Assembly (NCBI GenBank): GCA_036403435.1
Contig: DASWQY010000157.1
Location: 3,186-67,185, forward strand
Reading direction: 5' to 3'
Source of the DNA: Pyrinomonadaceae bacterium
GTDB lineage: Bacteria; Acidobacteriota; Blastocatellia; Pyrinomonadales; Pyrinomonadaceae
DNA: 64,000 nucleotides
In this document: positions 1,622 to 63,718 of the stretch, piece after piece
Position numbering within the stretch: position 1 is the first letter of the stretch
How the letters are laid out: every line of letters starts with the position of its first letter
Translations under genes and position numbers: made by a program
Notes under the pieces: model-generated
Told to the model about the DNA's origin: nothing
Databases searched by the model: none
What the model saw: only the letters and a program-made list of their open reading frames with translations

Positions 1622-1696
1622 CCAACCACGCGCATCACACGAAACGACACTAAATGGCTTGAACTGCGTGTCGTTTCGTGTGATGCGCGTGGTCGG
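1622..1696. repeat. Long hairpin element, CACGAA family
   Basis: Arms are ccaACCACGCGCATCACACGAAACGACAC (1622-1650) and GTGTCGTTTCGTGTGATGCGCGTGGTcgg (1668-1696). The stem is 26 bp and perfect, with a 17-nt loop. It lies in the gap downstream of the 937-aa minus-strand gene. Confidence 0.8.
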
Positions 1697-1783
1697 TTAC
1701 TCTCTCTCATCGCACACCAGTCTAAGCTTAGCAGATTACGAAAGAGGCCGACAGCCTGTGCGAGTTCGTCCGGCGGAAGGAAG

Positions 1784-4597
1784 TTACGGCGCGGGGTCGT
1801 TGTCCACGATGGTCGCCGTGCCCTGGCTGGCGGCGAGGGTGGCGTTGACCTGGTCGGAAAGAATGAGTTTGAAAGTCTCGTCGGGCTCGTCCGAGAGGTC
1901 GCCCTTCACCGGCACGGCCACGGTTTTGGCGGTCTGGCCGGGCGAGAAGATTAAGGTCGTGAGCGCCCTGGCCGTGTAGTCGGCGGGGGTCGCGGCCGTG
2001 CCGTCCGCCGTCTGGTATTTGACAGAGACGTTCCGGCCGCTCGCGGTGCTGAGTCTGACGGTGAAGACGGCGTTGAGTGTGCCACTGTTCCCCTCCGTCA
2101 CGGTCACGTTGTTGACCGAAAGCGCGGGGGCTTCGTTGTTGTCAATAATCGTCCCGACGCCCTGGCTGACGGCGAGCGTGGCGTTGACCGGGCCGGACAG
2201 GACCAGGTTGAAAGTCTCGTTCGCTTCGTCCAGCAGGTCGCCCTTCACGGCCACCGTCACGGGGAGGCTGGTCTGACCGGGCGCGAACGTCAGAGTCGTC
2301 AGCGGGACCGAGGTGTAGTCCGCGGGGGCGACGGCCGTACCGTTCGTGGTCTGACACTTGACCGTGACGGTCCGCGCGCTCTGGGCCGACAGGCTGACGG
2401 TGAAGGTGGCGTTGACCGTGCCCGGATTGACCTCCGTGACGGCGACTCTGTTGACTCTCAGGCTCGGGGTCGGGTCGTTGTCAGTGATCGTCCCGAGCCC
2501 GCTCGCCTCGGCGACGGTCGCGTTAGTCGGGGCCGAGAGGTTCACGCTGAAAGTCTCGTTGGCCTCGTCCAGCAAGTCGCCCCTGACCTGCACGGTGACG
2601 GGGAGACTGGTCCGCCCCGGCGCGAACGTCAGCGTCGTCAATGGCACGGCATTGTAATCTGTGGAGGCCGTGGCCGTGCCGTTGGCCGTCTGGTACTTGA
2701 CCGTGACGGTCTGCGCGCTCGCGGCGGACAAGCTGACGTTGAAGACGGCGTTGAGCGCGCCGGTGTTCCCTTCGGTCACGGTCACGTCGCTGATTGAAAT
2801 CGCGGGCATCGTCGCCGCGGGCGGGGCGACGTTGATGTTGACGGGGCTCGAAGTGGTCTGAGCGCCCGCGCTGTCTGTCGCGACGGCCGTCAGCGCGTAC
2901 TGGCCTTCAGGCACGTTGGCCCAGGTGATGCCGTAAGGGCTCGTCGTGTCTGTGCCAATTAAGTTGGCCCCGGCGTAGAAGTCCACGCGGGCGACGTTGC
3001 CGTCCCGGTCCGAAGCACTCGCGGCGAGTGTGACGCTCGCGGGCGCAGTGAAAGTCGCGCCATTGGCCGGGGCGCTCAGGCTCGCCGCGGGCTTGCTGTT
3101 GGGGCCGACTAGCAGCGTGTTGGAGAGAGCGCCGCCCGGATACGTGGCCGTGATTTTGGCGTAAAGTTCGTCCGCGACGGGCGCGGTGTTGACGGCGAAG
3201 ACGGCCGTGCGCGCCCCTTCGGGGACGGTGACGGAGGGCGGAGGAGTCGCCACGGAATAGTTACTGCTTGCGAGCGTGACCTGAACGCCGCCGGCCGGTG
3301 CGGGGGCGACGAGCTTGAGAGTCGCGCTCGTAGGGCCGCCGCCTCCGACCTCTATCGGGTTCAGTCGGAGCGAGGACTCGGCCGCGTCCGATTGATTAAA
3401 AGGCGCGAGGCCGTTGGGGAAAGGCCGGTAGAGTGGGTCGCCTATGTTGGCGATCATCCACTTGAGCCATTCCGTGTTGCGCAAGAGCGCGTCGCCGACG
3501 TTGGCCCCCTCGAAGAGGTTGCGGAAGACCCCGTCCGGGTGCGCGACGCCTTCAAGGTACGGCTCATCCACAGCGCCGCTCGTGACGGTGATGCCTTTGA
3601 TGATGGCGTTACGCGACCAGTTCGCCCCGTCGCGTATGTTGTAGGCCGACGAGCTGTCGGTGTGAAAGCCTATCGCGCCCGGCCGCCACGTGAAGGCGTC
3701 GTTGTAATTATTAAGACTGTACCAGCCGGCGTAGAGCGCCGCATCGTCGCAGCGCAGGGGCGCGGGCGCTGTGCCAAATTCGGCGAAGTTGCTGTCCTCC
3801 AGGACCTCGAAGCCCGCGCGCCGCGCCTCATCTGCGCCGCGGTGAATGTCCCAGTCGCCGGAGCCGTACCTGTAATCGTCCGCCTGGCTGATGTCGCCCT
3901 GTATGTCGAAGCACCCGCGCCCCGAGAGGCCATTGGCCTCCGCCAGCAGCGCCTTGTCAACGAGCCCCTTCGCCAGCGCGGCGCTCGCGCCGTCGAGCCG
4001 CCAGACGGAGTAGAGATGCTTGGCCGCAGGCTGCTCCCGGTAGTCGGAGAGCGAGACGAAAGGCTGGTAATGATTCCCCTGGCTCTGCGCCGGGGCGTAG
4101 TAGGCGTGCGCCCCGACCGCATCCCTGCCGCTCGTATCCTCGTCCCAGACATCAGCGATCTGCTGGTCAACCGCGCGGATGGGGTTCCCGGCCTTGTACG
4201 GAGTCAGGTAGGTGAAGACGATGTAAAGAATCTTGTCCCGGCCGACCGCGTTGAGACAATTCCTGACCGGGTCTCTGACGGCCGCGTCGAAAGCATTCCA
4301 GTCGGGAATGTAATAGGTCTCGGTGGTGCTGATCGCGCACTTGTTGGCGGCGGGAATCCCGCGCTTGGTCATGTAGTAGTCCGCGACTTGAACCGACTCC
4401 GGCTCGTTCGGGTTGTAAACGACCAGGACCCTTTCGTTGAGCGGGAGAGCTTGCGGTTGAGGAGGCGTGAAGCCGTGGGCGGCCTCGCGGCCCGAAGCGA
4501 AGCACGCGAGCGCGACGTAGGCCAGGAGGCACGCTGCGGTGGGCCGCGGGGCGCGCGAGTTATTCAAAGATGGTTTTCGACCCCGTCTGCGACGCAT
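1784..4597 (-). CDS. Secreted multidomain protein: TIGR03790-like N-terminal domain, Ig-like middle region, three C-terminal Calx-beta domains
   Basis: 937 aa. The N-terminus is basic then hydrophobic, consistent with a signal peptide. LVVYNPNEPESVQVADYYMTKRGIP resembles the TIGR03790 family (recognised from memory). There are three ~113-aa repeats with the Calx-beta signature (VxVTEGNxG...TVxVxYxTxxGTAxxxxDY...GDLLDEANETF). Confidence 0.75.
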   Translation of the reverse strand: MRRRRGRKPSLNNSRAPRPTAACLLAYVALACFASGREAAHGFTPPQPQALPLNERVLVVYNPNEPESVQVADYYMTKRGIPAANKCAISTTETYYIPDWNAFDAAVRDPVRNCLNAVGRDKILYIVFTYLTPYKAGNPIRAVDQQIADVWDEDTSGRDAVGAHAYYAPAQSQGNHYQPFVSLSDYREQPAAKHLYSVWRLDGASAALAKGLVDKALLAEANGLSGRGCFDIQGDISQADDYRYGSGDWDIHRGADEARRAGFEVLEDSNFAEFGTAPAPLRCDDAALYAGWYSLNNYNDAFTWRPGAIGFHTDSSSAYNIRDGANWSRNAIIKGITVTSGAVDEPYLEGVAHPDGVFRNLFEGANVGDALLRNTEWLKWMIANIGDPLYRPFPNGLAPFNQSDAAESSLRLNPIEVGGGGPTSATLKLVAPAPAGGVQVTLASSNYSVATPPPSVTVPEGARTAVFAVNTAPVADELYAKITATYPGGALSNTLLVGPNSKPAASLSAPANGATFTAPASVTLAASASDRDGNVARVDFYAGANLIGTDTTSPYGITWANVPEGQYALTAVATDSAGAQTTSSPVNINVAPPAATMPAISISDVTVTEGNTGALNAVFNVSLSAASAQTVTVKYQTANGTATASTDYNAVPLTTLTFAPGRTSLPVTVQVRGDLLDEANETFSVNLSAPTNATVAEASGLGTITDNDPTPSLRVNRVAVTEVNPGTVNATFTVSLSAQSARTVTVKCQTTNGTAVAPADYTSVPLTTLTFAPGQTSLPVTVAVKGDLLDEANETFNLVLSGPVNATLAVSQGVGTIIDNNEAPALSVNNVTVTEGNSGTLNAVFTVRLSTASGRNVSVKYQTADGTAATPADYTARALTTLIFSPGQTAKTVAVPVKGDLSDEPDETFKLILSDQVNATLAASQGTATIVDNDPAP
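1787..2800 (-). repeat. Three tandem ~339-nt coding repeats (Calx-beta modules)
   Basis: Protein repeats of 112, 113 and 113 aa run from ISISDVTVTEGN to IVDNDPAP. The copies are diverged, so this is not a recent DNA duplication. Confidence 0.8.
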
Positions 4598-4729: not shown

Positions 4730-5026
4730 GTGTCACGCGGGCCGAAGATACTCACAGTGAGCGACGAAGCCGCGACAAAACCGGCTCTCGAAACCGTCTT
4801 GGAGCACATCAGCGACCTGCGTGACGGGATGGATGCTTTCCGCGCTGAGATGAGCACTTTCCGCGATGAGATGAACGCTTTCCGCGCTTCCACAGAAGAG
4901 AGGCTAGAGCGCATTGGGATACGCATGGACAGGATCGAGAGTATAGCTCTAGAGGCGCGCGCCGATGTCAGAGAGCTTAAACGTGAGTTCAACGACTTCC
5001 GCTCCCAATTCAAACAGCCCGCCTGA
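4730..5026 (+). CDS. Hypothetical small coiled-coil protein (start uncertain; an in-frame GTG at 4757 is also possible)
   Basis: 98-aa ORF with the heptad-like repeat AFRAEMSTFRDEMNAFRAS. Its codon usage (GCT, ATA, CTA, AGA, AGG) is atypical for this GC-rich window. The competing minus-strand ORF at 4660-5013 is Ser/Arg-rich and less plausible. Confidence 0.35.
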   Translation: MSRGPKILTVSDEAATKPALETVLEHISDLRDGMDAFRAEMSTFRDEMNAFRASTEERLERIGIRMDRIESIALEARADVRELKREFNDFRSQFKQPA

Positions 5027-8051: not shown

Positions 8052-11000
8052 CTAGTGCGCCTGGCCGCTCATCGTCTGCGTTTGTGTGGATCGAGCGGCT
8101 TCCTCTTCTGGCGTCGGCTCTCTCTCGCCGAGGACGACGCGGACATGGTGCGTCTTGCCGTCGTCGGCGAGGGCGATGTCGAGCGTCGCCTGCCGCACGT
8201 CGTCGAGCCAGACTTCGGCGACGCCGCGGCTGACGCCGGAGGGGTTCTCGACCTTGATCGCGTAGAGCGTGCGCCCGCGCCGGTAGTTGATTTCGTACGA
8301 GCGCCAGCTACGCGGGATGCACGGCTCTATCTTGAGCTTCCCGGCGCGCAACTCGAAGCCGAGGATGGATTCGAGGCCCGCGCGGTACATCCAGCTCGAC
8401 GAGCCCGTGTACCACGTCCACCCGCCGCGCCCCGTGTGCGGCCAGACGGCGTAGACATCGCCGGCCGCGACGTAGGGCTCCGTCTTGTACTTGTGAAGGC
8501 CCGCGCGCGTCGAGGCGTGGCTGATGGGGTTCAGGAGCGTGAACAGCTCACCCGCGCGGTCGCCGTCGCCGAGACGGGCGTAGGCGATCAGAGTCCAGAT
8601 CGCCGCGTGCGTGTACTGGCCCCCGTTCTCGCGCACGCCCGGCACGTAGCCTTTGATGTAGCCGGGGTCGAGCGCGCTCTTGTCGAACGGCGGCGTGAAC
8701 AGAATGACCAACCCGTCGCCGCGCCGTATCAAATACTCTTCGACGGCCGACATGGCGCGGTGCGCGCGCACGCGGTCGGCCGCGCCCGAGATGACGCCCC
8801 ACGATTGCACGATGGAGTCAATTCGGCACTCCTCGTTCTGCGCGGAGCCCAAAGGCGTGCCGTCGTCGAAGTAAGCGCGGCGATACCAGTCGCCGTCCCA
8901 GGCGTGTGCTTCGAGCGCCTGCTTCAAGTTCGTCATGTGCTCGCGGTAGGCCGAGGCGCGCGCCGTCTCCTTCCGCTCGTCGCAGAACGGCGCGAAACCA
9001 TTAAGCGTCGTGTGCAGGAACCAGCCGACCCACACGCTCTCGCCTTTGCCCAGATGGCCCACGCGGTTCATGCCGTCGTTCCAGTCGCCCGAGCCCATCA
9101 GCGGCAAGCCGTGCTCGCCCGTCTTCAAGCTCCTGTCGAGCGCACGCGCGCAGTGCTCGTAAACGCTCGCCGTCTCGGCCGAGACGGCGGGCTGCGTGTA
9201 AGACTCGCTCTCTTCGGGGCCGAGCTGCGGCCCCTCGATAAATGGCACAACTTCGTCGAGCACGGAAGCGTCGCCGGTCACCTCTATGTAGAAGTTCGTG
9301 ACGAAGGGGAGCCACAATAAATCGTCCGAGAAGCGCGTCCGCACCCCGCGGCCCGTCGGCGGGTGCCACCAGTGCTGAACGTCGCCCTCCTTGAACTGGC
9401 GCGACGCCGCGCGCACGATCTGTGCTCGGGCAATCTCAGGCTTGGAGTAGACGAGCGCCATCACGTCCTGCAACTGGTCGCGGAAGCCGTAAGCGCCGCC
9501 CGACTGGTAGAAGGCCGAGCGCGACCAGACGCGGCAGGCCAAAGTTTGATAGAGCAGCCAGCGATTAAGAAGCGTGTCCATCGCCGTGTCCGGCGTGCGG
9601 ACCTCGATTGCGCCGAGCAACTCGTCCCAGTGGGCGACGACGCGCTCGAACTCCTGGTTGACCTGGGAGATTTTCCTGAAGCGCACGGACAGAGAGCGCG
9701 CCTCTTCCGCGCTCTCGGCCTGGCCCGCGAGGATGACGATTTGGCGCGACTCGCCGGGGGCGAGTTCCACGACACACTGGAGCGCGGCGCAGGGGTCCAG
9801 CCCCGCGCCCGCGCGGCCCGAAAGACCGACGCGGCGGAGCGCCGCCGGGTCGTCCAGCGAGCCGTTGCGCCCGATGAACTCCTTGCGGTCGCACGTCACG
9901 GTGCGCTCCTGCCCGACTAATTCGAAGAAGGCGACGCGGTGCGCGAACTCGTTGTTATAGGGGTTGCGCGCCGTGACGGGGCCGTCACGCTCGTCGGCCT
10001 CCGTGATGATGAAGGGCGCGGACTGGCTTCGCTGCACGCCGAGCACAAGCTCGTTGTAGCTCGTCACCGAGAGCCGCCGCTTGCGCTCCGTCTGGTTGCG
10101 CAGGCGCAGGACGGAAATCTTGACGGGCGCGTCGAGCGGCACGAATTGCAGCAGCTCCTGCGCCAGCCCGTGGCTCGTGCGCTCGAAGACCGTGTAGCCC
10201 TGACCGTGGCGGACAATGTATGGGCCAGTTTCGCGCACGGGCAAAGGCGTCGGCGTCCAAACTGTGCCAGTCTCTTCGTCGCGCAGGTAAACCACTTCGC
10301 CCGGCGGGTCGGAGATCGCGTCGTTCGACCACGGCGTCAAACGGTTCTCGCGGCTGTTGGCCGACCAGGTGAAGCCTGCGCCCGTCTCCGTCACCTGGAA
10401 GCCGAAGTCCTGGCCGTTCGAGACGACGTTGAGCCAGGGCGCGGGCGTCCACTGCCCCTCGCCGAGGATGATGACGTACTCGCGCCCCTCGGGGCTGAAG
10501 CCGCCGAGGCCGTTGAAGAACGCGAGGTCGGGGCTCTCGACCGTGGGCTCGGGGTAAGTGCGCGAGGGCCGGCGCGGGACGAGTGGCAGCGGCAGTTCGC
10601 TCTCGATGGGGCGGCGCACGAGTTGTTCGTCGAGCGAGCCGCGGTCGGTGACGATGACGACGCGCGCGACCGCGTGGAGCAGGATGCGGTCGGCCTCGGG
10701 CATGATGTCGGTGCGGCGCACGAAGACGCCGCCGGGCTTGTCCAGAAGCGCGTGCGAGCCGCTCTTGCGAATCAGCGACTGAATCTCCTCCTGAAGCTCC
10801 TGGACGTAGCTCAAGGGCTTGTCGTTCAAAATCACCAGGTCGAAGCTCAAGCCCTTAAGGTGCAGGTACTCGTGCGCCCTGAGCATCTGGCGCACCATGT
10901 CCAACTCTTCCGACTGCCCGATGCGGACCAAAACTATCGGCAGGTCGCCGCTGATGCCGTAGGGCCAGAGGGAGGATTGCGCTTTCGTGTTGAGCGAGAG

Positions 11001-21101: not shown

Positions 21102-21197
21102 AATTCCCCTACACAGATAGAAATCTCATTTTCATTGATGAGCCGTGAAACCAGACATCATAACACGCGCGGCGCGATTGAGCACACGCAGACGAGC

Positions 21198-21305
21198 GGC
21201 GATTTCACGCAAAGGCGCAAAGAAGCAACGACGTAAGGCGCAAAGAAAGTGCATGCCTCCCTTTGCGCCTTACGTCGTTCGCTTTGCGCCTTTGCGTGAA
21301 ATCGC
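21198..21305. repeat. CTTTGCG-family long hairpin (about 45-bp interrupted stem)
   Basis: GCGATTTCACGCAAAGGCGCAAAG..ACGACGTAAGGCGCAAAG (21198-21244) pairs with CTTTGCGCCTTACGTCGT..CTTTGCGCCTTTGCGTGAAATCGC (21261-21305). The perfect blocks are 24 and 18 bp, separated by a small internal loop. It shares CCCTTTGCGCCTTACGTC...CTTTGCGCCTTTGCG with 45904-45940. Confidence 0.8.
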
Positions 21306-21312
21306 TTCGCTT

Positions 21313-28619: not shown

Positions 28620-28640
28620 ATGGCAGGTGATTCAAAGACA

Positions 28641-45860: not shown

Positions 45861-45997
45861 ATTGCGGATTGGAAACCGGAATTCAAGCCGCCCACTAATT
45901 CAACCCTTTGCGCCTTACGTCTTAACTTTGCGCCTTTGCGAGAACGGCTGTTTCACGCTGGAGGCGCAAAGGGAAAACTTAAGGCGCAAAGGGTTGA
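45861..45997. repeat. CTTTGCG-family composite repeat (flank module plus interrupted hairpin)
   Basis: The flank is ATTGCGGATTGGAAA...AAGCC. The hairpin ATTCAACCCTTTGCGCCTTA..CTTTGCGCC (45898-45934) pairs with GGCGCAAAG..TAAGGCGCAAAGGGTTGAAT (45961-45997), giving 20-bp and 9-bp stems. It lies between convergent genes. Confidence 0.75.
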
Positions 45998-46040
45998 ATC
46001 GTTCGGTCTCTTGAGTGCTGGAACTGGTCTCAGTCTGCAA

Positions 46041-47336: not shown

Positions 47337-47650
47337 GGCGGTCTCCTTCTTGGTAGGTAGGCCGAAGTTAAAGGGGAGACGAGAGCGCCGGAAGGCTCAT
47401 GGGCTCGCGCCTCAAGCCGGACGCGCGTCCTTTGGGCCTTGCCATCATTAACCGCGAGCCGCGTGACGAGGGCCGGTGGAGCTGGCAGGGGCTTGCGGTT
47501 TGGGCTGAGACGAAAACGAAGGGCGCGATGGTTGTCTCGGGCGCTAAAAAACTTTCCTTCGCCTTCTTTGAAATTGGCCCGATACCTGCCTGCGCGTGCC
47601 GCGTGCTATGATTCCGCGCCGGACGATTCCGTCAGGGTTAATCAAAAGTC

Positions 47651-48892: not shown

Positions 48893-48989
48893 AGCTCTCC
48901 GTGGTGATGACCCACGGGCGGCCCGCGGCAATAGAATTGCGGGCCGCGGCAATAAAGAAACCAGGCACGGGAAGGACGTTGAGCCCGTG

Positions 48990-52055: not shown

Positions 52056-52088
52056 ACTAATTAACGCGCGAGGCGTGGCCCGCGTCCC

Positions 52089-52646
<558 letters not shown>

Positions 52647-52856
52647 TCTAAAAATTTCTCCCGGTGACGATTTTCTACTTCGGCCGGCGCTTGTGCGAGC
52701 GCGCGTTCTTCGGTTGCGGGGCCGTGCGGACGTTGATTCTACATCAAAAATTTTCCGCGACGTGAGGGAATTCGGGCCGGCCCTGCGCGTTACTAAATGA
52801 AGGCGGCAATCAGTGGCCGCGCGACGGCAAGTTCGGCAGACACGAAAGAGGTCCGT

Positions 52857-53300
52857 ATGAAAAAACTCAGCATCTTCCTACTTTTCGGATTATTCGCAAT
52901 CCTCGCGGCCGCGCCCGCCCGCGCCCAGGCGGTCCGGGAACAGACTGCGAGCATTCCTTTCGCATTCAACGTCGGCGACAAGACTTTCCCGGCCGGCGAC
53001 TACAGGGTCCGGCGGTTGAACCCGGCGTCGGACCGCGCGGCGCTTGAGATTAAGAGCGCCGACGGGCACTTCGGCAAGATCACGCTGACGAGCTTCGTTC
53101 ACTCGGGCAAGGCGTCGGGTCAGGCGCGGTTAGTCTTCACGCGCTACGGCGAACAATATTTTTTGGCACAAGTCTGGACGCAGGCCCAGGACGAAGGGCT
53201 GGCGCTTCCGACATCTCGCAGCGAGCGCACGCTGGCGCGTAAAGCTAGGGAACGCGCGCCCGAGCGCGCGACCGTCGCGCTCGGCCGGCGGCCCAGGTAA
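52857..53300 (+). CDS. Hypothetical secreted protein
   Basis: The start is set at the ATG at 52857 (MKKLSIFLLFGLFAILAAAPARAQ signal peptide). The product is 147 aa. I recognised no family with confidence. Confidence 0.5.
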   Translation: MKKLSIFLLFGLFAILAAAPARAQAVREQTASIPFAFNVGDKTFPAGDYRVRRLNPASDRAALEIKSADGHFGKITLTSFVHSGKASGQARLVFTRYGEQYFLAQVWTQAQDEGLALPTSRSERTLARKARERAPERATVALGRRPR

Positions 53301-53365
53301 ACGCCCCGGAAGACGTTTACCGAAGGCCGCCGCCACCCTGTGCGGCGGGCACGCTGCGAGTCCAA

Positions 53366-53409
53366 CCAAAGTGGGCCGGAAGTCTGAGTTGACTTCCGGC
53401 CCACTTTGG
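53366..53409 (+). terminator. Perfect 19-bp hairpin downstream of the 52857-53300 gene (no U-tract)
   Basis: CCAAAGTGGGCCGGAAGTC (53366-53384), loop TGAGTT, then GACTTCCGGCCCACTTTGG (53391-53409). Confidence 0.4.
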
Positions 53410-53447
53410 CGTGCGCGCGCGACGGAGCTTATCCATTACCGACAAAA

Positions 53448-53539
53448 AAAAATCAGGGACCACGAAGCAACACGAAGAGACACGAAGGAAGCTCAACTCC
53501 TTTCGTGTCGTTTAGTGTTGCTTCGTGGTTCCTGATTTT
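53448..53539. repeat. Long hairpin element, CACGAA family (10-nt periodic arms)
   Basis: AAAATCAGGGACCACGAAGCAACACGAAGAGACACGAAGGA (53448-53488) pairs with TCCTTTCGTGTCGTTTAGTGTTGCTTCGTGGTTCCTGATTTT (53498-53539). The stem is about 40 bp and imperfect. Confidence 0.75.
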
Positions 53540-53674
53540 GATGATTCGCCATCACGCGCGGCGCGGGTTATGATAGTATCGGTTTTCGTCATCGTTCCAA
53601 CGCAAGTCGCTCTTAATTCTCGCGCCGGCCGGCGTCCCGCGCGGCCCCCGCATCAGTCGAAAGGAATTTCAGAA

Positions 53675-54106
53675 ATGTGCCCCAGGGTCTGCCCGAAAAT
53701 CTTCACGCTCCTGAGTCTCCTCATCGCGACGGCCGCCGCCGCGCCGGCGCAAAGCTGCCTCTCGTACGAGCCCGCAGAAGTCCAACTTTCCGGCACACTC
53801 AGCAAGCAGGTCGTCCCAGGCCCGCCCAACTACGAGAGCGTGCGGCGCGGCGACAAGCCCGAGACCATCTGGATACTGACGCTCGACAAGGCCGTCTGCG
53901 TCACGGGGAACACGGACGACGTGAACGAGCCCGAGCAGAACGTCACAGACCTACAACTGGCCCTACAGCAAGACCAGTTCGCACAGCTCCGCAGGGTGAC
54001 GGGCCGCAAGGTTCACGCCGCGGCCTCGGGCAAGCTCTTCCACGCCCACACCGCGCACCACCGCACGAAGGTGCTGCTCGACGTTAAAGAGATAGAAAAG
54101 CAATGA
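53675..54106 (+). CDS. Hypothetical secreted protein (DUF4431-like)
   Basis: The start is set at the ATG at 53675 (MCPRVCPKIFTLLSLLIATAAAAPAQS). The product is 143 aa. The pattern LSGTL...PGPPNYESV..GD.PE..WIL.LD..VCV resembles DUF4431 (recognised from memory). Confidence 0.5.
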   Translation: MCPRVCPKIFTLLSLLIATAAAAPAQSCLSYEPAEVQLSGTLSKQVVPGPPNYESVRRGDKPETIWILTLDKAVCVTGNTDDVNEPEQNVTDLQLALQQDQFAQLRRVTGRKVHAAASGKLFHAHTAHHRTKVLLDVKEIEKQ

Positions 54107-54111
54107 TGAAC

Positions 54112-54172
54112 GAGGAATGATGAATGCGGAATTAAAAACCAGTTGTCTTTAATTCCGCATTCATCATTCCTC
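54112..54172. repeat. Long hairpin element, GATGAAT family
   Basis: GAGGAATGATGAATGCGGAATTAAA (54112-54136) pairs with TTTAATTCCGCATTCATCATTCCTC (54148-54172). The stem is 25 bp and perfect, with an 11-nt loop. It starts 6 nt after the upstream stop. Confidence 0.85.
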
Positions 54173-54211
54173 ATTCCGCATTATTATTTCTGATGGACGG
54201 AGAACCCCCAA

Positions 54212-55522
54212 ATGGCCGAGACCCGCACAGCGGTTGGCGCTGCCGGTCGTCGCTTGCTGCGGCGCGGCGCTCGCGGCGTGCGGCGCACGTTCTCCAAGCG
54301 CAAGCGGCTCTTCGCCTACCTGGCCGTCCTCGGCCCAGGCGTCATCGCGGCCAACGCCGGCAATGACGCGGGCGGCATAGCCACTTATGCCTCCGTCGGC
54401 GCGGACCACGGCTACCGTCTCCTCTGGGTTCTCATCCCCATCACCCTGAGCCTCGGCCTCGTGCAGGAGATGTGCGCGCGCATGGGCGCGGCGACCGGCA
54501 AGGGGCTGGCGGACTTGATCCGCGAACGCTTCGGCGTCCGCTGGACCATGCTCGTGATGCTGGCGCTCCTGGTCGCCAACGGCGGCATCACCATCTCGGA
54601 GTTTTTGGGAATCGCCGCGGCCTCGGAACTCTTCGGCGTCCCGCGCTACGTCTCCGTGCCGCTCGCGGCCGCGGCCGTCTGGTGGCTCGTCGTCAAAGGC
54701 TCTTACAAGCGCGTCGAGCGCGTCTTCCTCGTCATGGCGCTCGTCTTTCTGGGCTACATCGTCTCGGCCTTCTTAGCCCGTCCGCATTGGGGCGAGGTGG
54801 CGCGCGCGCTCGTCACGCCTTACTTCGACTTCCACCCGGTCTTCCTCTTCACGTTCCTGGCAATCGTCGGCACGACCATTTCGCCCTATATGCAGGTCTT
54901 CGTGCAGTCCTCGGTCGTCGAGAAAGGCGTCACGACCGAAGACTACAAGCTGACGCGCGCCGACGTGTGGGTCGGCACGACCTTCGCGATGACGATTGTC
55001 TTCTTCATAGTCATCTCGACGGCCGCGACCTTGCACACGCGGACGCCCCCCGCACACATTGAGGCGGCCGCGGACGCCGCGCGCGCCCTTGAGCCGCTGG
55101 CGGGCCGCTACGCCGAGGCGCTCTTCGCCGTCGGGCTCTTCGGCGCGTCAATGCTGGCGGCGGGCGTGCTGCCGCTCGCGACCGCCTATTCGATTACCGA
55201 GGCGCTGGGGTTCGAGAAGGGCGTCTCGCGCAGCTTCCGCGAGGCTCCGATTTTCCTGGGCATCTTCACTTCGCTCGTCGCCGTCGGCGCAATCGTTGCG
55301 ATGCTGCCGGGGCTGCCCCTGATCGACGCCCTGCTCAACATGCAGGTCATCAACGGCCTGCTCCTGCCCGTCATCCTCATCGCCATCCTCCGCCTCGTCA
55401 ACGACCGCGAGGTGATGGGCGACTACACCAACGGCCCCATCTACAACGTCGCCGCCTGGCTCACCACCGTCATCGTCTCCGCCCTCTCGCTCCTCTTCAT
55501 CGCGACGAAGATTTTTTGGTAG
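54212..55522 (+). CDS. mntH: NRAMP-family divalent metal (Mn2+/Fe2+) transporter
   Basis: 436 aa with about 11 hydrophobic segments. The motif GPGVIAANAGNDAGGIATY is the NRAMP TM1 DPGN-type motif region. Confidence 0.85.
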   Translation: MAETRTAVGAAGRRLLRRGARGVRRTFSKRKRLFAYLAVLGPGVIAANAGNDAGGIATYASVGADHGYRLLWVLIPITLSLGLVQEMCARMGAATGKGLADLIRERFGVRWTMLVMLALLVANGGITISEFLGIAAASELFGVPRYVSVPLAAAAVWWLVVKGSYKRVERVFLVMALVFLGYIVSAFLARPHWGEVARALVTPYFDFHPVFLFTFLAIVGTTISPYMQVFVQSSVVEKGVTTEDYKLTRADVWVGTTFAMTIVFFIVISTAATLHTRTPPAHIEAAADAARALEPLAGRYAEALFAVGLFGASMLAAGVLPLATAYSITEALGFEKGVSRSFREAPIFLGIFTSLVAVGAIVAMLPGLPLIDALLNMQVINGLLLPVILIAILRLVNDREVMGDYTNGPIYNVAAWLTTVIVSALSLLFIATKIFW

Positions 55523-55616
55523 TGGTCAGTGGTAGTGGTCGGTGGTCAGTGGTCAGTTAAGAGAAAGATAAAAGCAGTTGTGCCAATCAGGCCGGCCGCT
55601 TTTTAACTGACCACTG
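55521..55616. repeat. GTGGTCA-family element, asymmetric (long left arm, short right arm)
   Basis: The left arm AGTGGTCAGTGGTAGTGGTCGGTGGTCAGTGGTCAGTTAA starts inside the mntH stop codon. Only CAGTGGTCAGTTAA (55547-55560) finds a partner, TTAACTGACCACTG (55603-55616). Confidence 0.7.
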
Positions 55617-55672
55617 TCTTTTTGCGCTTGATAGTGGTAAAAAGAGGTGCAAAGTTACTCGGGCTTACCTGA

Positions 55673-57160
55673 TTGGTTTTCAGAGGAATCAACGCCGCTG
55701 TGGCTCGTTCCCACTCAAAAAATCGAATCCTCCTCTTCCTTCTAGTCACGGCCCTCGTCGTCCTGGCCCTCTACGGCCTGCACTTCTTCGAGCCGCGCCT
55801 GCGCGCGGGCTTCGTGCACGCCGGCGACCCCGCGGCCGACGTTCATAAGCAGGAAGAGAATTTTCGGATGGTGATGAATATCGCCGGCCTGGTGCTGTGG
55901 ATGATTCTCGCCATCCTCATCACGCGCGCCCTGAGCGCCATCCTCTTCGGCATCTTCTTCCGGCAGCGGAAGGGCTACGAAGCGCCGGTCCTGATTCGCA
56001 ACACCTTCTCCGTCGTCGCCTACATCGCCGGCTTCATCATCATCTTCAAGGCGTTCTACCCGGACGTGGGGCTCGGCGCGCTGTTCACGACTTCGGCCGT
56101 GCTCGGCGCGATCATCGGTCTCGCCTTGCAGGACACTCTGGGTAACTTCTTCGCGGGCATCTCCGTCCACGCCGACAAGCCGTTTCAGGTCGGCGACGTG
56201 ATCGCCGTCGGCCCCTGGACCGGCGTGGTCGAGAGCATCACCTGGCGCGCGGTGAAAATCAGGACTTTCTCAAACCACATAGTCCTCGCCAGCCATTCGA
56301 GCATCTCGAAGGAGTCCATAGACATCGCCCCGCGCGACAACCTGAACGCGCGCATAGTCTTCTTCAACACGCTCTACACGGACTCGCCCGCCAAGACCAT
56401 ACACATCGTCCGCGAGGCCGTGCGCGAGGCCGACAACGTCTCGCCCAAAATCACGCCCATCGTCCGCGTCAGGGGTTTGGGCGACAGCTCGATTGACTGG
56501 GAGGTCAAATACTGGTTGATTGACTACGCCAAATACAACGACACGGACGCGCTCGTGCGCCAGCGCATCTGGTACGCCTTCCGCCGCGCGGGTATCCACT
56601 TCGCCTACCCGACGCGCACGCTGCACATCGCCCGCCAGCCGAAGACGGACGGCCTCGGCGCGGACGGCAGCGGCTTCATAGACAGGCTCTCGGCCGTGGA
56701 CATCTTCGCGCCGCTCTCTACGGAGGAGACGGCGCGGCTGGCCGCTGCCTCCGTCAGCCACGTCTTCGCCCCCGGCGAATCCGTCATCCGCGCCGGCGAC
56801 GAGGGCTCCAGCATGTTCGTCGTCCATAGCGGCCGCGTCAGCGTTCAGCTTACGGACCACGGCAAGCCGCGCACGGTCGCCGTGCTCCAGGAGGGCGACT
56901 TTTTCGGGGAGATGGCGCTCTTTACGGGCGAGCCGCGCACGGCCAACGTCGTCGCCCTGGAAGAGACGGAAGTCCTGGAAATCGGCAAACAGGCCATGAA
57001 ACACCTCTTCGACACCAACCCCAACCTGGTTGACTCCTTGAGCCACATCATCGCCGAGCGAAGGGTCGGCCTCACGGCCAAGCCCGAAGAGGCCGGCGAC
57101 GGCGAAAAAGAGTCCGAAGGCATCATCGCCTCCATCAAACGCTTCTTCGGCTTCGACTGA
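55673..57160 (+). CDS. MscS-family mechanosensitive channel fused to a C-terminal cyclic-nucleotide-binding domain (start uncertain)
   Basis: 495 aa. The MscS core reads LQDTLGNFFAGISVHADKPFQVGDVI. The cNMP-binding region reads FAPGESVIRAGDEGSSMFVVHSG...GDFFGEMALFTGEPRTANVVA. Confidence 0.85.
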   Translation: MVFRGINAAVARSHSKNRILLFLLVTALVVLALYGLHFFEPRLRAGFVHAGDPAADVHKQEENFRMVMNIAGLVLWMILAILITRALSAILFGIFFRQRKGYEAPVLIRNTFSVVAYIAGFIIIFKAFYPDVGLGALFTTSAVLGAIIGLALQDTLGNFFAGISVHADKPFQVGDVIAVGPWTGVVESITWRAVKIRTFSNHIVLASHSSISKESIDIAPRDNLNARIVFFNTLYTDSPAKTIHIVREAVREADNVSPKITPIVRVRGLGDSSIDWEVKYWLIDYAKYNDTDALVRQRIWYAFRRAGIHFAYPTRTLHIARQPKTDGLGADGSGFIDRLSAVDIFAPLSTEETARLAAASVSHVFAPGESVIRAGDEGSSMFVVHSGRVSVQLTDHGKPRTVAVLQEGDFFGEMALFTGEPRTANVVALEETEVLEIGKQAMKHLFDTNPNLVDSLSHIIAERRVGLTAKPEEAGDGEKESEGIIASIKRFFGFD

Positions 57161-57256
57161 GGCCCGCGCCGGCACCCCGGCCCCGCCCGGCTTAACCTTA
57201 ACTATTTTTCAATTTAACTTTCTCGGCCACACGGCCAAAATTTTTCCCGCCCGAGA

Positions 57257-57286
57257 CTTGACAAAGAGGGACTCAACATTTATCAT
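57257..57286 (+). promoter_or_regulatory. Consensus sigma70-type promoter of the heat-shock block, overlapped by a HAIR-like (HspR operator-like) sequence
   Basis: TTGACA (57258-57263), a 17-nt spacer, then TATCAT (57281-57286). CTTGACA-AAGAGGG-ACTCAAC (57257-57277) compares with the HAIR consensus CTTGAGT-N7-ACTCAAG at 11/14 positions with correct spacing. Confidence 0.5.
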
Positions 57287-57382
57287 ACGGCCATGCTCAC
57301 AAGCCGGGGTCCTCGATTTACTCTCAGTCTTCGGCCTGTGAGCAGCCAAAAGAATTACCGTTAAGGAAAGGAGAAGTTCGTC

Positions 57383-57922
57383 ATGAGCATCATTCGTTAC
57401 GACCCATTCCGCGACCTACGCAGTCTTCAGGACGAAGTCAACCGTCTGTTTTCGACCAACTTGTCCCGCGTCTTCGGTGACGAGGGCATTGCCCGCGGTG
57501 CCTGGAACCCGAACGTGGACATCTACGAGAACAAGGACCAGATCGTCATAGAGGCCGAGCTGCCCGGCATGAACCGCGAGGACTTCGACCTCTCGTTCGA
57601 GAACAACGTGATTACGCTTCGCGGCGAGCGGCGCTTCGAGAAGAAGGACGAGACGGACAACTACCACCGCGTCGAACGCTCCTACGGCTCTTTCACGCGC
57701 TCGTTCACGCTGCCGCCGACCGTCTCCGGCGAAGGCACCACGGCCGAGTACCGCAACGGCGTCCTGCGTATCACGCTCCCCAAACGCGAAGAGGTCAAGG
57801 CCCGCCGCATAGAGATTGCCGGCGAAGGCGCTGAGGCCAAGACCTCGCGCACCATCGAGGCTCAGGCCGAAACGTCCGGCGGCGAAAAGTCTGACAAGAC
57901 GATGACGGCGTCCGGCAAGTAA
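57383..57922 (+). CDS. Small heat-shock protein, Hsp20/alpha-crystallin family
   Basis: 179 aa. AAGGAAAGGAG lies upstream. The alpha-crystallin domain reads WNPNVDIYENKDQIVIEAELPGMNREDFDL...GVLRITLPKRE. Confidence 0.9.
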   Translation: MSIIRYDPFRDLRSLQDEVNRLFSTNLSRVFGDEGIARGAWNPNVDIYENKDQIVIEAELPGMNREDFDLSFENNVITLRGERRFEKKDETDNYHRVERSYGSFTRSFTLPPTVSGEGTTAEYRNGVLRITLPKREEVKARRIEIAGEGAEAKTSRTIEAQAETSGGEKSDKTMTASGK

Positions 57923-57929
57923 ATACTTT

Positions 57930-58006
57930 AGTGATGAGTGGCGAGTGATGTGTGAAAGACTTCTTCTTATCACACATCACTCGCCACTCATCACTCATCA
58001 CTTTTT
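57930..58006 (+). repeat. Long hairpin element (GTGATGA family) plus T5 tract abutting the clpB start codon
   Basis: AGTGATGAGTGGCGAGTGATGTGTGA (57930-57955) pairs with TCACACATCACTCGCCACTCATCACT (57970-57995). The stem is 26 bp and perfect, with a 14-nt loop, followed by CATCACTTTTT and the ATG at 58007. Confidence 0.85.
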
Positions 58007-60598
<2,592 letters not shown>

Positions 60599-60606
60599 AA
60601 AGCAAT

Positions 60607-60687
60607 GCGGAATGATGAATGATGAATGATGAATTAAAGGCATTTGCTTTTCATTCATCATTCATCGTTCATCGTTCATCATTTCGG
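60607..60687. repeat. Long hairpin element, (GAATGAT)n family
   Basis: AATGATGAATGATGAATGATGAAT (60611-60634) pairs with ATTCATCGTTCATCGTTCATCATT (about 60662-60685). This gives about 23 bp if two U.G wobbles are allowed in the plus-strand RNA. Alternative pairing registers are possible because both arms have a 7-nt period. Confidence 0.75.
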
Positions 60688-60694
60688 AGACGTT

Positions 60695-61135
60695 ATGACT
60701 CGACATTGGGACCCGTTACGCGATTTGGTGACGTTGCAGGATCGGATGAACCGCCTGTTTCAGGACGCGGCGGAGAAGCGCGGCGAAGGTGAGGGCGAGC
60801 AGGAGTTGGAGCGCGCCGACTGGTTCCCGGCGGCGGACATCTACGAGACCGAGAAGGATTTCACCATCGCGGTTGACCTGCCCGGCATCGAGCGGGCCGC
60901 GCTGGAGATCAACTTGGACGACGACAAGCTCGTGATTCGCGGCGAGCGCGCGGCCGAGGGCGAGGCGCAGCGCCGCACGGAGCGCCCGCACGGCCGCTTC
61001 CTCAGAAGGTTCGGCGTGCCCGCGAGCGTGGACCAAAAAGGAATCAGCGCCGAATACAAGGACGGCGTCCTGCGCGTCCGCCTGCCCAAGCGCAAGGAGC
61101 CGAAGACGCGGCGCGTGGAAATCAAGATTCAGTGA
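60695..61135 (+). CDS. Small heat-shock protein, Hsp20/alpha-crystallin family (second copy)
   Basis: The start is set at the ATG at 60695 (MTRHWDPLRDLVTLQDRMNRLF), with GGAGA 5 nt upstream. The alpha-crystallin domain reads WFPAADIYETEKDFTIAVDLPGIERAALEI...GVLRVRLPKRKE. The track's N-terminal extension is only the translated hairpin. Confidence 0.9.
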   Translation: MTRHWDPLRDLVTLQDRMNRLFQDAAEKRGEGEGEQELERADWFPAADIYETEKDFTIAVDLPGIERAALEINLDDDKLVIRGERAAEGEAQRRTERPHGRFLRRFGVPASVDQKGISAEYKDGVLRVRLPKRKEPKTRRVEIKIQ

Positions 61136-61190
61136 TGAGTGATCAGAGGCGGGCTCTTACTCATCACTCATCACTCATCACTCATCACTA
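61131..61190. repeat. GTGATGA-family element, asymmetric, overlapping the hsp20 stop
   Basis: AGTGATGAGT (61131-61140) pairs with ACTCATCACT (61160-61169), and AGAG pairs with CTCT. The right side continues as (CTCATCA)x4. Confidence 0.65.
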
Positions 61191-61192
61191 CT

Positions 61193-61888
61193 ATGGTATC
61201 TTTCCGCAGGGAGAAGAAGAAGCGTCGTATGGAAGAGGACAGGGTGTCTGATGAGGCGCGGGCGGAGGCGTCCGCGCCGGCCTCGGAAGAGGAGACACGC
61301 GTGACTGACCGCGGTCGAATCAACTTGGAAGGCCAGGCGGGCGGCGAAGCTGCCGGCGAAGAAGCGCCGAGCTTGAAGCCGACTTACGAGCAGTTGGAGG
61401 AGACGACGCGCGCAGCCAAGCAGGAGGTCGCGGACGTGCGGTCTCGCTTCGAGCAGATGCGCGCGCAGTTGCAGCGCGAGACGGACGAAACGCGCCGGCG
61501 CTTGAACCGCGCGGCGGACGAGCGCGCACGGCGCGAGAAGGGCGAGTTCGTCGCCGCGCTTTTGCCGGTCGCGGACAACTTGCAGCGGGCGATTAACGCG
61601 GCCGAGCAGGGCGGCTCCTTAGAGTCGCTGCTCGACGGCGTGCGCGGGACGCTGAGCAGTTTCGAGAGCGCGCTTGCGGCGGCCGGCCTTGAGCCTGTCG
61701 CCTCGGTCGGCGAGCAGTTCGACCCGGAACGGCACGAGGCCGTGGACACAGTCGAGGTCGAGCCCGAGCGCGCTGGAATAGTTACGGCCGAATATAGCCG
61801 CGGCTACAAGCTCGGCGACCGCTTGCTGCGCCCCGCGCGCGTGCAGGTCGGCCGCGCGCAGGGCGAGGCGAAGAAGGCGGCAGAATGA
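61193..61888 (+). CDS. grpE: Nucleotide exchange factor GrpE (start uncertain: ATG at 61193 or 61229)
   Basis: It has an acidic N-terminal region and a coiled coil, then LLPVADNLQRAI, FDPERHEAV and GYKLGDRLLRPARV. Confidence 0.85.
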   Translation: MVSFRREKKKRRMEEDRVSDEARAEASAPASEEETRVTDRGRINLEGQAGGEAAGEEAPSLKPTYEQLEETTRAAKQEVADVRSRFEQMRAQLQRETDETRRRLNRAADERARREKGEFVAALLPVADNLQRAINAAEQGGSLESLLDGVRGTLSSFESALAAAGLEPVASVGEQFDPERHEAVDTVEVEPERAGIVTAEYSRGYKLGDRLLRPARVQVGRAQGEAKKAAE

Positions 61889-61891
61889 AGC

Positions 61892-63620
<1,729 letters not shown>

Positions 63621-63622
63621 AG

Positions 63623-63718
63623 AATGAAAAATTAGAAATGTAAAATGCAAAATGGGAGACGGTCGGCGGCGGGCTCTGCGTCTTCCATTTTGCATTTTTA
63701 ATTTTGAACTTTTCATTT
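63623..63718. repeat. A/T-rich long hairpin element, AAATGCAAAA family
   Basis: AATGAAAAATTAGAAATGTAAAATGCAAAATGGGAGACG (63623-63661) pairs with CGTCTTCCATTTTGCATTTTTAATTTTGAACTTTTCATT (63679-63717). The stem is about 39 bp with about 6 mismatches. It starts 3 nt after the groEL stop. Confidence 0.75.

Follow-up and report, generated by a model that had tools for sequence, protein, structure and literature searches.

What are the long hairpins that stand at the ends of so many genes in a 64,000-nucleotide stretch of Pyrinomonadaceae DNA (contig DASWQY010000157.1 of GenBank assembly GCA_036403435.1, positions 3,186 to 67,185; this whole stretch is referred to here as the window)? The original prediction, made from the letters alone, described about 15 hairpins with tandemly repetitive arms, almost all abutting stop codons. 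The hairpins are real, abundant, and lineage-specific. Our best reading places all 15 in one superfamily of dispersed palindromic repeats that runs through the Pyrinomonadaceae and Blastocatellia lineage. With a probability of about 0.55, we take them to be dispersed palindromic heptamer microsatellites, resembling repetitive extragenic palindromes (REPs), that are shaped at the level of DNA and are tolerated, or used, as intercistronic and 3'-end stem-loops.

An inverted-repeat search recovered every listed locus, and the stems of all 15 window hairpins are inverted repeats with near-perfect arms of 16-45 nucleotides (nt) and 77-100% complementarity, separated by loops of 2-59 nt. Folded with 25-nt flanks, the 15 loci have minimum free energies (MFE) of -33 to -91 kcal/mol. 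Tandem Repeats Finder, which is independent of the inverted-repeat search, identified the arms as short tandem arrays. The claim of 15 hairpins with tandem-repeat arms therefore held up by inverted-repeat search, tandem-repeat search, and folding alike; the measured loops range wider than the proposed 11-28 nt, and the arms at 55521 (the element at 55517-55616) and 61131 proved unequal. The locus at 21198-21305 is a nested double hairpin with a true span of 21190-21314. Period-7 arm types are AGTGGTC, GAATGAT, AGTGATG, and AAATGYA (Tandem Repeats Finder units CAGTGGT, GAATGAT, ATCACTC, and AAAATTA), period-8 types are CTTTGCG and GAGACGCG (units ACGCAAAG and GAGACGCG), and the type with a period of approximately 10 is CACGAAnnn (unit CACGAAGAAA). 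At least seven unit families lie side by side in one 64-kb window. The arms at 61892-61970 are complementary at 32 of 32 positions across four unit variants, with irregular units mirrored exactly. The GC content of the elements is 0.32-0.65, against 0.61-0.69 along the window and approximately 65% for the genome, as had been noted from the letters.

We found that these hairpins far exceed chance. An ungapped hairpin finder (stem of at least 14, loop of at most 45, mismatch penalty of 3) detected 17-18 hairpins in the window, the count varying with the loop limit, and none in five local shuffles that kept composition in 100-nt blocks. Hairpin density was 1.9-4.4 per 10 kb in Pyrinomonadaceae loci versus 0-1.4 in 16 loci of unrelated, high-GC taxa, among which a single hairpin (L024), which was not inspected, passed the test for arm period. 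Rfam, a check that the original prediction had proposed, returned no match for the elements at the gathering score, and a search by E-value gave weak sub-threshold matches only, all to eukaryotic microRNA-precursor models and of a sort that long hairpins in general would give. A tRNA and tmRNA scan of the window found none.

The window holds approximately 41 ordinary chromosomal genes, according to a gene map based on GC content at third codon positions and to Pfam, including metC-like, thiE, typA, trmL, ribA, TonB-dependent receptor, extracytoplasmic function sigma factor, Nramp, and MscS genes and a heat-shock cluster (hsp20-clpB-hsp20-grpE-groEL). All 15 hairpins lie downstream of some gene's 3' end, 12 of them overlap a stop codon or lie within 10 nt of one, and none of the four divergent gaps holds a repeat-armed hairpin. 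The proportion of 12 in 15 had been claimed before and holds once two gene calls are corrected: the open reading frame (ORF) adjoining 26101-26167 is on the minus strand at 26171-26713, as indicated by codon-position composition and by an independent metagenome gene call, and trmL is frameshifted near 21470, with its correct-frame stop at 21313-21315. The three exceptions are the elements at 1622 (87 nt from a stop), 45898 (18-40 nt, in a convergent gap), and 53448 (148 nt). Between a third and a half of the gene 3' ends in the window carry an element, which makes the elements a major feature of the non-coding genome. Since the same genome also uses conventional GC-rich stems followed by a T-tract (gaps at 16932, 22229, and 30996), besides GC-rich hairpins in the convergent gaps at 28620 and 48893, the repeat-armed hairpins form a separate class, in agreement with the original distinction from ordinary terminators. 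Approximately half of the window elements leave a spacer of 36 nt or less before the next gene; examples are hsp20-clpB, clpB-hsp20, hsp20-grpE, grpE-groEL, cupin-trmL, TonB-S41, and DUF4431-Nramp. As a separate observation on trmL (SpoU-family tRNA methyltransferase; 21158-21775, minus strand), its Pfam/NCBIfam match ends at residue 107 and the rest lies in another frame; because an independent contig from the Joint Genome Institute (JGI) has the same frameshift, trmL is either a pseudogene or recoding event or an error common to both assemblies.

We next consider whether these properties extend beyond the window, using a census of approximately 1 Mb of related, Blastocatellia-type DNA that contained 113 repeat-armed hairpins. 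Their common plan is two inverted arrays of a short unit flanking a variable center; the unit is 7 nt in approximately 90% (101 of 113 have period 7) and otherwise 8-10 nt, and stems are 14-41 bp. Co-directional gaps hold 86 elements, convergent gaps 10, divergent gaps 8, and genes none, against a background of 352 co-directional, 72 convergent, and 77 divergent gaps. The distance from stop codon to hairpin has a median of 6 nt, with 65 of 96 at 10 nt or less, while for other hairpins the median is 48.5 nt (11 of 46 at 10 nt or less). Among heptamer families, whichever the strand, the array rich in G and poor in C nearly always forms the 5' arm: G exceeds C in the 5' arm in 96 elements versus 9 (n = 105, p = 2e-19), or 53 versus 9 when the seeded AGTGGTC family is left out, and the C-rich arm comes first in only three of the 15 window elements (1622, 19211, and 45898). 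ATG and GTG triplets number 213 in 5' arms and 17 in 3' arms. A concentration of stop codons in the 5' arm was considered and rejected, stop triplets being evenly divided (163 versus 160).

The census also indicates that the elements are not canonical intrinsic terminators. A T-run of four or more within 10 nt downstream follows just 13 of 86 elements (15%), consistent with the earlier remark that most lack a U-tract, and the flanks are symmetric (downstream T fraction 0.36, upstream A fraction 0.39). A canonical terminator nested in the center was rejected as a general feature (1 of 83 in a strict scan); a GC stem with a T-run inside the center is clear in a few cases (L044, L116, L128, and L142). 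Stem mismatches, oriented by the upstream gene, comprise 30 G:T or T:G and 32 A:C or C:A, so there is no sense-strand wobble excess, which argues against selection purely on RNA pairing.

Sequence is shared between distant loci, as first suggested. Within the window, CCCTTTGCGCCTTACGTC is common to 21198 and 45898, AATGCGGAAT...GAATTAAA to 54112 and 60607, and GGTCGGTGGTCAGT to 21783 and 55521, and the unit families recur on many contigs. A 19-mer from the irregular part of the AGTGGTC arm, CAGTGGYCGGTGGTCAGTT, occurs in at least 120 metagenome stretches on contigs with a GC content of 0.35-0.69; among the matches listed, 46 of 125 fall in hairpins by a strict finder, and the contigs that carry it inside a detected hairpin have a GC content of 0.46-0.69. 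On one of these (L043, GC 0.52), an AGTGGTC-family element lies between rpsQ and rplN, and the ribosomal protein S3 of that contig groups with metagenome-assembled genomes of Pyrinomonadaceae and 'Chloracidobacterium sp.' The 82 other hairpins on contigs with the 19-mer use the same small unit repertoire as the window and its relatives, namely CGTAAAT, GGGATGA, AGTGAYR, TGAGTTT, GAGTCTG, AGTTTCA, CACGAAn, CTTTGCG, and CAGAGAC. These data support the view that the hairpins are dispersed families and did not each originate on their own in place. Four matches on viral contigs, three apparently in ordinary non-hairpin sequence and one hairpin-like, give no real phage signal.

Two further observations concern the distribution of palindromes in related DNA. 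AGTGGTC-family hairpins lie between tRNA genes at 358-540 of L035, so the elements are not limited to the ends of protein-coding genes. In addition, GTAG-type REP-like families such as TGTAGGGGCAGGGC... occur alongside the heptamer palindromes in relatives; a GTAG-headed family, TGTAGGGGCAGGGCTTGTCCCTGCCC, and the family GTCAGTACCGCCTGCGGTAGCGGGCGGGT, both without tandem arms, recur in related genomes (L009 1899-1967, L047 7923-7979, L060 496-571, L126 10006-10078, L008 6458-6530, L032 8576-8648, and L050 5068-5162).

The GrpE encoded in the window is 100% identical to a protein of a metagenome-assembled Pyrinomonadaceae bacterium. Nearly identical assemblies suggest how the arrays change. The JGI contig (L001) covers 9281-31089 and 47404-64000 of the window (38.4 kb) with zero substitutions and two differences, both unit-sized insertions or deletions. 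One is a 21-nt indel, ACTGACCACTGACCACCGACC, equal to three heptamers, in the right arm of the element at 55517-55616; that arm is 21 nt (3 units) shorter in the window than in L001, and this is the only difference in 16.6 kb. The second, a single 12-nt unit within a coding repeat, is the sole change over 21.8 kb. A contig from the European Nucleotide Archive (L002) breaks inside the 55517-55616 hairpin. A look-up of the exact protein product of the VWA gene, for further strain-level comparison, returned no record. Separately, the 657-nt gap at 22229-22885 contains a small lysine/glycine-rich ORF (approximately 22400-22560, minus strand; MATKKGGKGGSKGGSKG...) made of 12-nt coding repeats, which has a lysine/alanine-rich version in relatives.

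Over longer times, positions persist and units do not. Eight species-level relatives are syntenic with the window around the heat-shock cluster (nine genomes with the window), and four more around typA. A repeat-armed hairpin follows hsp20a in nine of nine genomes and groEL in nine of nine, the latter of AAAATGCAAAAGG/AAAAGGCAAAAGG or CGTAAAT type, and follows hsp20b in all eight genomes that have the gap (L008 lacks hsp20b), those of L004 and L011 being weak. Behind both grpE and Nramp, eight of nine genomes carry one, and deletions in L003 leave the last few right-arm bases, a remnant of the last unit. After clpB, three genomes have strong hairpins, one has a different GC-rich structure, and four have decayed ones; among the orthologues, L004 has GGGATGA, L010 has CAGGAGA, and L003, L005, L009, and L011 have decayed ATGAACGCGAAAC hairpins. 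Behind trmL, as behind typA, only two of five genomes carry a hairpin. Units vary by genome between hsp20a and clpB (GTGATGA, GTGACGG, or GTGATAA), after groEL (AAATGCAAAAT, AAAGGCAAAAGG, or CGTAAAT), and between cupin and trmL (AGTGGTC in the window versus GGTGACA, AGTGACA, and AGTGATG in relatives), and the two arms change jointly between genomes at orthologous gaps. RNAalifold applied to the nine hsp20a-clpB gaps gave double compensatory changes in 7 of 20 pairs around a nearly invariant GTGA/TCAC core, and a T-tract follows seven of the nine hairpins. Elements thus endure at particular gaps even as their units are replaced.

Arm sequences at two of the gaps do not follow the relationships of the genes. 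By flanking proteins, the window forms a clade with L003, L004, and L006 (GroEL 94%, MscS 93%), and the other five genomes are more distant (GroEL 90%, MscS approximately 80%). The hairpin subtypes at Nramp-MscS and GrpE-GroEL always match within one genome, in a pattern that cuts across the gene tree: AGTGGTC units with a GAACTGATTT-type center at both loci in the window and L005, AGTGGTC-type elements with AGTGGCC units and a different center in L009, and AGTAGTC/AGTAATC units with a CAGCT...GCTTT center in L004, L006, and L011. Two loci of L005 that lie 6 kb apart have 28 nt of arm sequence in common without a difference, or 31 nt counting three loop bases that continue the unit (AGTGGTCAGTGGTCAGTGGCCGGTGGTCAGT), around unrelated centers. 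At the elements and their orthologous gaps we found no target-site duplication, conserved end tag, or insertion event, only deletions; of the two signs of mobility that the original prediction had proposed to look for in such gaps, presence/absence variation was found and target-site duplications were not. L003 also carries, at 16749-16890, a hairpin with a 64-bp stem (58 matches) and non-repetitive arms, an element of another kind than the heptamer palindromes.

We propose that these elements could arise and be maintained in three steps. Units would be gained and lost by replication slippage, as suggested by the unit-sized indels and by the unequal arms at 55517 and 61131. The arms would then stay copies of each other through templated, hairpin-mediated correction, since irregular variant units are mirrored exactly and mismatches have no G:U preference; selection on RNA pairing alone would probably not yield both. 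Such template-switch 'quasipalindrome correction' is an established mutational process (attributed to Ripley in 1982 and to Lovett and colleagues). Lastly, arm sequence may now and then be copied between loci by conversion or a transposition-like step, because identical arms occur at separate loci and subtypes are genome-specific. The elements are confined to untranslated space beginning at a stop codon, in most cases with co-directional genes on both sides, and it is into this space that they would expand. TGA, TAG, or TAA occurs in many of the units, which allows an element to provide the stop codon of the gene. The position against stop codons may be no more than the point at which expansion ceases to be tolerated: past the 3' end of a gene there would be no signals to guard, and the 5' side of the next gene would need its ribosome-binding region.

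Once transcribed with the upstream gene, the elements would fold into stem-loops of 16-45 bp and may replace the ordinary GC-rich 3' hairpin. By analogy with what has been proposed for the REPs of E. coli, they could partially attenuate read-through and block 3' exonucleases, protecting the upstream message; such a REP-like effect seems the most likely one because the elements would be co-transcribed, many lie in apparent operons, they appear to replace the 3' hairpin, and they lack U-tracts. If a stem begins no more than 10 nt from the stop codon, a ribosome terminating there would melt part of it, and REPs that near a stop codon reportedly affect translation of the upstream gene (attributed to Liang, Rudd, and Deutscher in 2015).

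Several points weigh against this account. The unit-number polymorphism rests on assemblies, where repeat collapse is possible, and L002 breaks inside the very hairpin concerned. Losses are observed and no clear gain is. The irregular arm AGTGG[C/T]CGGTGGTCAGTT is strongly conserved across genomes with a GC content of 0.46-0.69, which would be hard to obtain by slippage and self-correction alone and hints at a factor that reads the sequence. The account gives no reason for the G-first polarity. A GC-rich hairpin is also present in 2 of 86 element gaps versus 41 of 340 others (p = 0.005), an exclusion confounded by the short residual spacer (27 versus 143 nt). Outside the window the census uses crude gene calls, and its sample was partly seeded with one family (AGTGGTC). 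Finally, every RNA-level role is one that we infer from sequence.

A rival possibility is that the hairpins are non-autonomous mobile elements in the narrow sense, REP/REPIN-like or similar to MITEs (miniature transposable elements with inverted repeats), copied to new sites by a trans-acting enzyme encoded elsewhere in the genome, for example a REP-associated tyrosine transposase (RAYT) or an IS200/IS605-type tyrosine transposase, that reads hairpin and heptamer, with slippage secondary. We consider this unlikely. It would account for dispersed families with an irregular arm consensus conserved across many genomes, for the 28-nt identity within L005, for genome-specific subtypes common to separate loci, and for variable presence at orthologous sites; stop-codon contact is known for GTAG REPs (PMC3733652), and ordinary GTAG-type REP-like families coexist in the relatives. 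However, neither the 15 window elements nor 46 AGTGGTC copies have a conserved GTAG/CGTC tag, flank, or target, no target-site duplication was seen, the centers of copies are unrelated in sequence and in length (3-60 nt), and every clear polymorphism has the look of a deletion, with remnants of units left behind. Among 39 window proteins scanned with Pfam, a set that leaves out a 2,959-aa protein at 8052-16931, no transposase turned up, whether RAYT or another HUH/Y1 type, in line with the original statement that the window has none, and a crude, weak motif scan of approximately 1 Mb of related DNA likewise gave no HUH/Y1 candidate; the orthologue of the 2,959-aa protein in L152 carries glycoside-hydrolase domains. 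MITEs proper were rejected, as centers are unrelated among copies, ends are not duplicated, and empty sites look like internal deletions.

Alternatively, the hairpins may be purely local, cis-acting RNA structures (unusual terminators or 3' stabilizers), each descended at its own site from an ancestral hairpin, lengthened by slippage and selected for pairing, whose likeness is convergence. Their persistence at the same gaps in nine genomes with compensatory changes, the T-tracts between hsp20a and clpB, and the freedom of element gaps from ordinary GC-rich hairpins all fit this possibility, and the window element between ClpB and Hsp20b resembles an amplified form of the degenerate ATGAACGCGAAAC hairpin of L005, L009, and L011. 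This reading is nevertheless quite unlikely, given that long irregular arms are common to non-orthologous loci and different genomes, that the unit repertoire is limited and shared, that G:U mismatches are not in excess on the sense strand (30 versus 32), that T-runs follow only 15% of elements, and that the flanks are symmetric. Many spacers also lack the room for a promoter of the next gene, which full termination would therefore silence. As a general explanation, RNA thermometers serving the heat-shock cluster were rejected because the same architecture lies behind typA, trmL, a TonB gene, Nramp, ribosomal protein genes, and tRNA genes.

It is similarly improbable, in our judgment, that heptamer-array palindromes at stop codons form a general bacterial 3'-end or intercistronic class common, at least convergently, to Blastocatellia, Xanthomonas, and cyanobacteria, whose sequence is read or made by a trans factor with a 7-nt register. 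Candidate factors could be a Csp/S1-type OB-fold single-strand binder or an HUH-type enzyme acting on single-stranded DNA. The G-first polarity could then hide C-rich Rho-loading sites or ensure that the arm ahead of the next gene is free of start codons.

Regulatory G-quadruplexes or i-motifs, as proposed for the heptamers of Xanthomonas and Nostoc, with the hairpin incidental, are very improbable here. The G-rich strand does lie on the sense side past stop codons, the same rule as reported before (PMC4692102), and the GGGATGA family (L004, L008, and L093) fits a G3N4 x4 pattern. However, most families have no G-tract (AGTGATG, GAATGAT, CGTAAAT, AAATGCA, AGTAATC, and TGAGTTT), AGTGGTC has GG only, and near-perfect complementary arms would make a duplex or hairpin a strong competitor, so unit composition already largely refutes this reading. 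Motifs like DNA uptake signals, spread and homogenized by biased uptake and recombination as inverted pairs behind genes in the manner of Neisseria and Haemophilus, are hardly credible despite the genome-specific 'dialects' that cut across the gene tree and the type IV pilus or type II secretion system-like genes in the window, since a single window holds at least seven unit families, none of the 113 elements lies inside a gene, and we know of no uptake sequence in tandem array form. Integron attC sites were rejected as well: none of the 15 elements has RYYYAAC...GTTRRRY cores, the Pfam-scanned window proteins include no integrase, and their neighbors are not cassette arrays but syntenic genes with housekeeping roles, among them groEL, clpB, typA, and ribosomal protein genes.

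Table 1. Repeat-armed palindromes of the window, with their placement and their counterparts in other genomes (MFE in kcal/mol).
Position	Element	Arms and fold	Placement	Counterparts elsewhere
1622..1696	CACGAAn-family palindrome with the C-rich arm first; period about 10	1622-1650 and 1668-1696, 29 nt, 97% complementary; MFE -54.8	87 nt past Calx-beta gene stop, 20 nt ahead of metC-like start	CACGAAn family also on L071 and L058
19211..19276	Palindrome, CTTTGCG family, period 8		4 nt past typA stop (minus strand)	Related ATTGCGG hairpin at this site in L153; none in L152, L154, L155
21190..21314	Nested double palindrome, CGCAAAG/CTTTGCG family	Outer 21190-21222 and 21282-21314; inner 21227-21245 and 21261-21279, 100% complementary	Abuts true trmL stop 21313-21315	Orthologous copy in L155; absent from L152-L154
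21780..21871	Palindrome, AGTGGTC family, period 7	38 nt, 95% complementary	Overlaps cupin gene TAG stop; end 8 nt ahead of trmL start	RGTGAYR-type hairpins at orthologous site in L152, L153, L155
26101..26167	Palindrome, GAGACGCG family, period 8		3 nt past stop of minus-strand gene 26171-26713	Similar CAGAGAC family in L050
41991..42087	Palindrome, AAATGCAAAATT / AAAATTA family, period 7, GC 0.33	41991-42031 and 42047-42087; 30-bp perfect stem	Overlaps TGA stop of TonB_C gene; 28 nt ahead of S41 peptidase start	
45876..46021 (core 45898-45997)	Palindrome, CTTTGCG family		Convergent gap, VWA gene / ankyrin gene	TCAACCCTTTGCGCCTT...CTTTGCGCCTTTGCG shared with L004 16192-16288, non-orthologous site
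53449..53539	Palindrome, CACGAAGnnn family, period 10	43 nt, 86% complementary; MFE -69.1	Second hairpin past stop at 53300	
54102..54182	Palindrome, GAATGAT family, period 7		Contains DUF4431 gene TGA stop; 30 nt ahead of Nramp start	DUF4431 gene stop spanned in L003 and L004 by CAGGAGT/CTGACTY palindrome
55517..55616	Palindrome, AGTGGTC family	Unequal arms	Contains Nramp gene TAG stop	
57930..58002	Palindrome, AGTGATG family	26-bp perfect stem	8 nt past hsp20 stop, then T5, then clpB ATG	
60604..60686	Palindrome, GAATGAT family		6 nt past clpB stop; 8 nt ahead of hsp20b start	
61131..61190	Palindrome, AGTGATG family	Unequal arms; right array ACTCATC x4.4, 100% matches	Contains hsp20b TGA stop; end 3 nt ahead of grpE ATG	
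61892..61970	Perfect 32-bp palindrome, AGTGGTC family, mirrored variant units	100% complementary; MFE -72.9	4 nt past grpE stop, 22 nt ahead of groEL start	Irregular unit order of the arm as in L005 arms, one base substituted
63623..63718	Palindrome, AAATGYA family, GC-richer center		3 nt past groEL stop	

Other features of the window lie near these elements or apart from them. A perfect 19-bp GC-rich hairpin without repeat arms at 53366-53409, missing from the list of the original prediction, has orthologues that differ in sequence yet remain complementary (L003 2326-2367, L004 2154-2194, and L006 2193-2237). At 57996-58009 and orthologous sites, the clpB ATG follows hairpin and T5 by 0-2 nt, without a Shine-Dalgarno sequence, in seven of nine genomes. 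Downstream of the groEL hairpin and upstream of a ClpA/ClpC-like gene, a non-coding block at 63725-63950 is kept in nine of nine genomes and comprises a promoter-like TTGCCAATTGCAGGTGCGAGGTGTGGTATAGT followed by a GGAAACGCAACGGCGTTTCC hairpin. Direct repeats at 4836-4888 (21 nt x2.5, upstream of the Calx-beta gene in a gap of 500 nt) and 39456-39498 (22 nt x1.9, in a divergent gap) are possible regulator binding sites, and the gene for a Calx-beta/Big_7 surface protein at 1820-2786 contains 339-nt tandem repeats (2.8 copies, 74% matches).

The finding is broader than a single window shows. Blastocatellia, including the Pyrinomonadaceae, abound in soil, and hardly any molecular genetics has been done on them; these elements will affect operon prediction, terminator prediction, and assembly, one contig having broken inside an element. 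They also make an old question testable, namely what makes heptamers predominate among the long microsatellites of bacteria and what these heptamers do, in a system that offers many natural sequence variants at orthologous sites.

How do the elements compare with known systems? The open-access literature yielded no description of them in Acidobacteriota, the genome papers on Chloracidobacterium and Pyrinomonas make no mention of such repeats, and a literature search with the arm sequences returned unrelated primer matches only. Similar to intrinsic terminators, they are stem-loops downstream of genes, a minority with a T-tract; they differ in that their stems are 16-45 bp and AT-richer, 85% have no T-run, flanks are symmetric, and many spacers leave no room for a downstream promoter. 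With REPs and bacterial interspersed mosaic elements (BIMEs) of Proteobacteria they share dispersal as extragenic palindromes of species-specific sequence, mostly within or at the ends of operons and often touching or supplying a stop codon, as REP termini can do (PMC3733652); a REP also acts as both partial terminator and stabilizer (bioRxiv 10.64898/2026.03.23.713779). However, the elements here have no GTAG/CGTC tag or full-length consensus, their centers are unrelated between copies, their stems consist of tandem units and are longer by a factor of 2-4, and the DNA examined for RAYT (39 window proteins, and approximately 1 Mb by a crude, weak HUH...Y scan) yielded none.

Intergenic tandem heptamers of related unit and unknown function are likewise found among the short tandemly repeated repetitive (STRR) sequences of cyanobacteria and among TAACTGA repeats. 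TAACTGA direct repeats occur in Beggiatoaceae, Cyanobacteria, and Bacteroidetes, with one inverted repeat reported in BOGUAY (PMC4679880). The loop-proximal TTAACTGAC of our AGTGGTC family contains TAACTGA. The STRR2 unit, reportedly TTGGTCA (attributed to Mazel and colleagues in 1990), is one base from GTGGTCA. Those repeats are mainly direct arrays, often just upstream of start codons, whereas the inverted, stop-codon-anchored form dominates here.

The closest counterpart is in Xanthomonas campestris and X. axonopodis, each of which has approximately 185 GGGAATC heptamer arrays, with 70-75 pairs convergent (Rehm et al. 2015, PMC4692102). These arrays lie preferentially between aligned ORFs and are depleted between divergent ORFs and in coding sequence; they are within 50 bp of or overlap a stop codon with the G-rich strand sense, and the same gaps are occupied in both species while length and sequence vary (PMC4692102). 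Rehm and colleagues took them to form G-quadruplexes and identified no function for them, and Nostoc has related GGGGAYT repeats (PMC4692102). In view of these arrays and of stop-supplying REPs (PMC3733652), calling our elements an unnameable class overstated their novelty. The two systems are alike in their tandem 7-nt units, mostly about four copies per array, spread genome-wide; in two convergent arrays able to form a stem-loop; in their co-directional gaps (here 86, versus 10 convergent, 8 divergent, and 0 in genes), stop-codon contact, and G-rich sense strand; and in occupying the same gaps in related species with extensive variation in length and sequence. They differ in that at least 10 unit families occur here and one there, four or more G3 tracts are confined here to the GGGATGA family, our arms are longer and near-perfect with stems up to 45 bp, the host phylum is Acidobacteriota, and the hairpin rather than the single array is the constant feature. 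The elements are therefore not categorically new; they are a multi-family, non-G-quadruplex form, in a new phylum, of an element kind already reported but unexplained. Since most families here have no G-tracts, the G-quadruplex reading cannot apply to them, and a structure that most families cannot form is unlikely as the common explanation. The main value of our data is comparative: they separate out what is general, namely the 7-nt unit, inverted arrays, stop-codon anchoring, the G-rich arm first, and co-directional gaps, and they weaken the explanation by G-quadruplexes.

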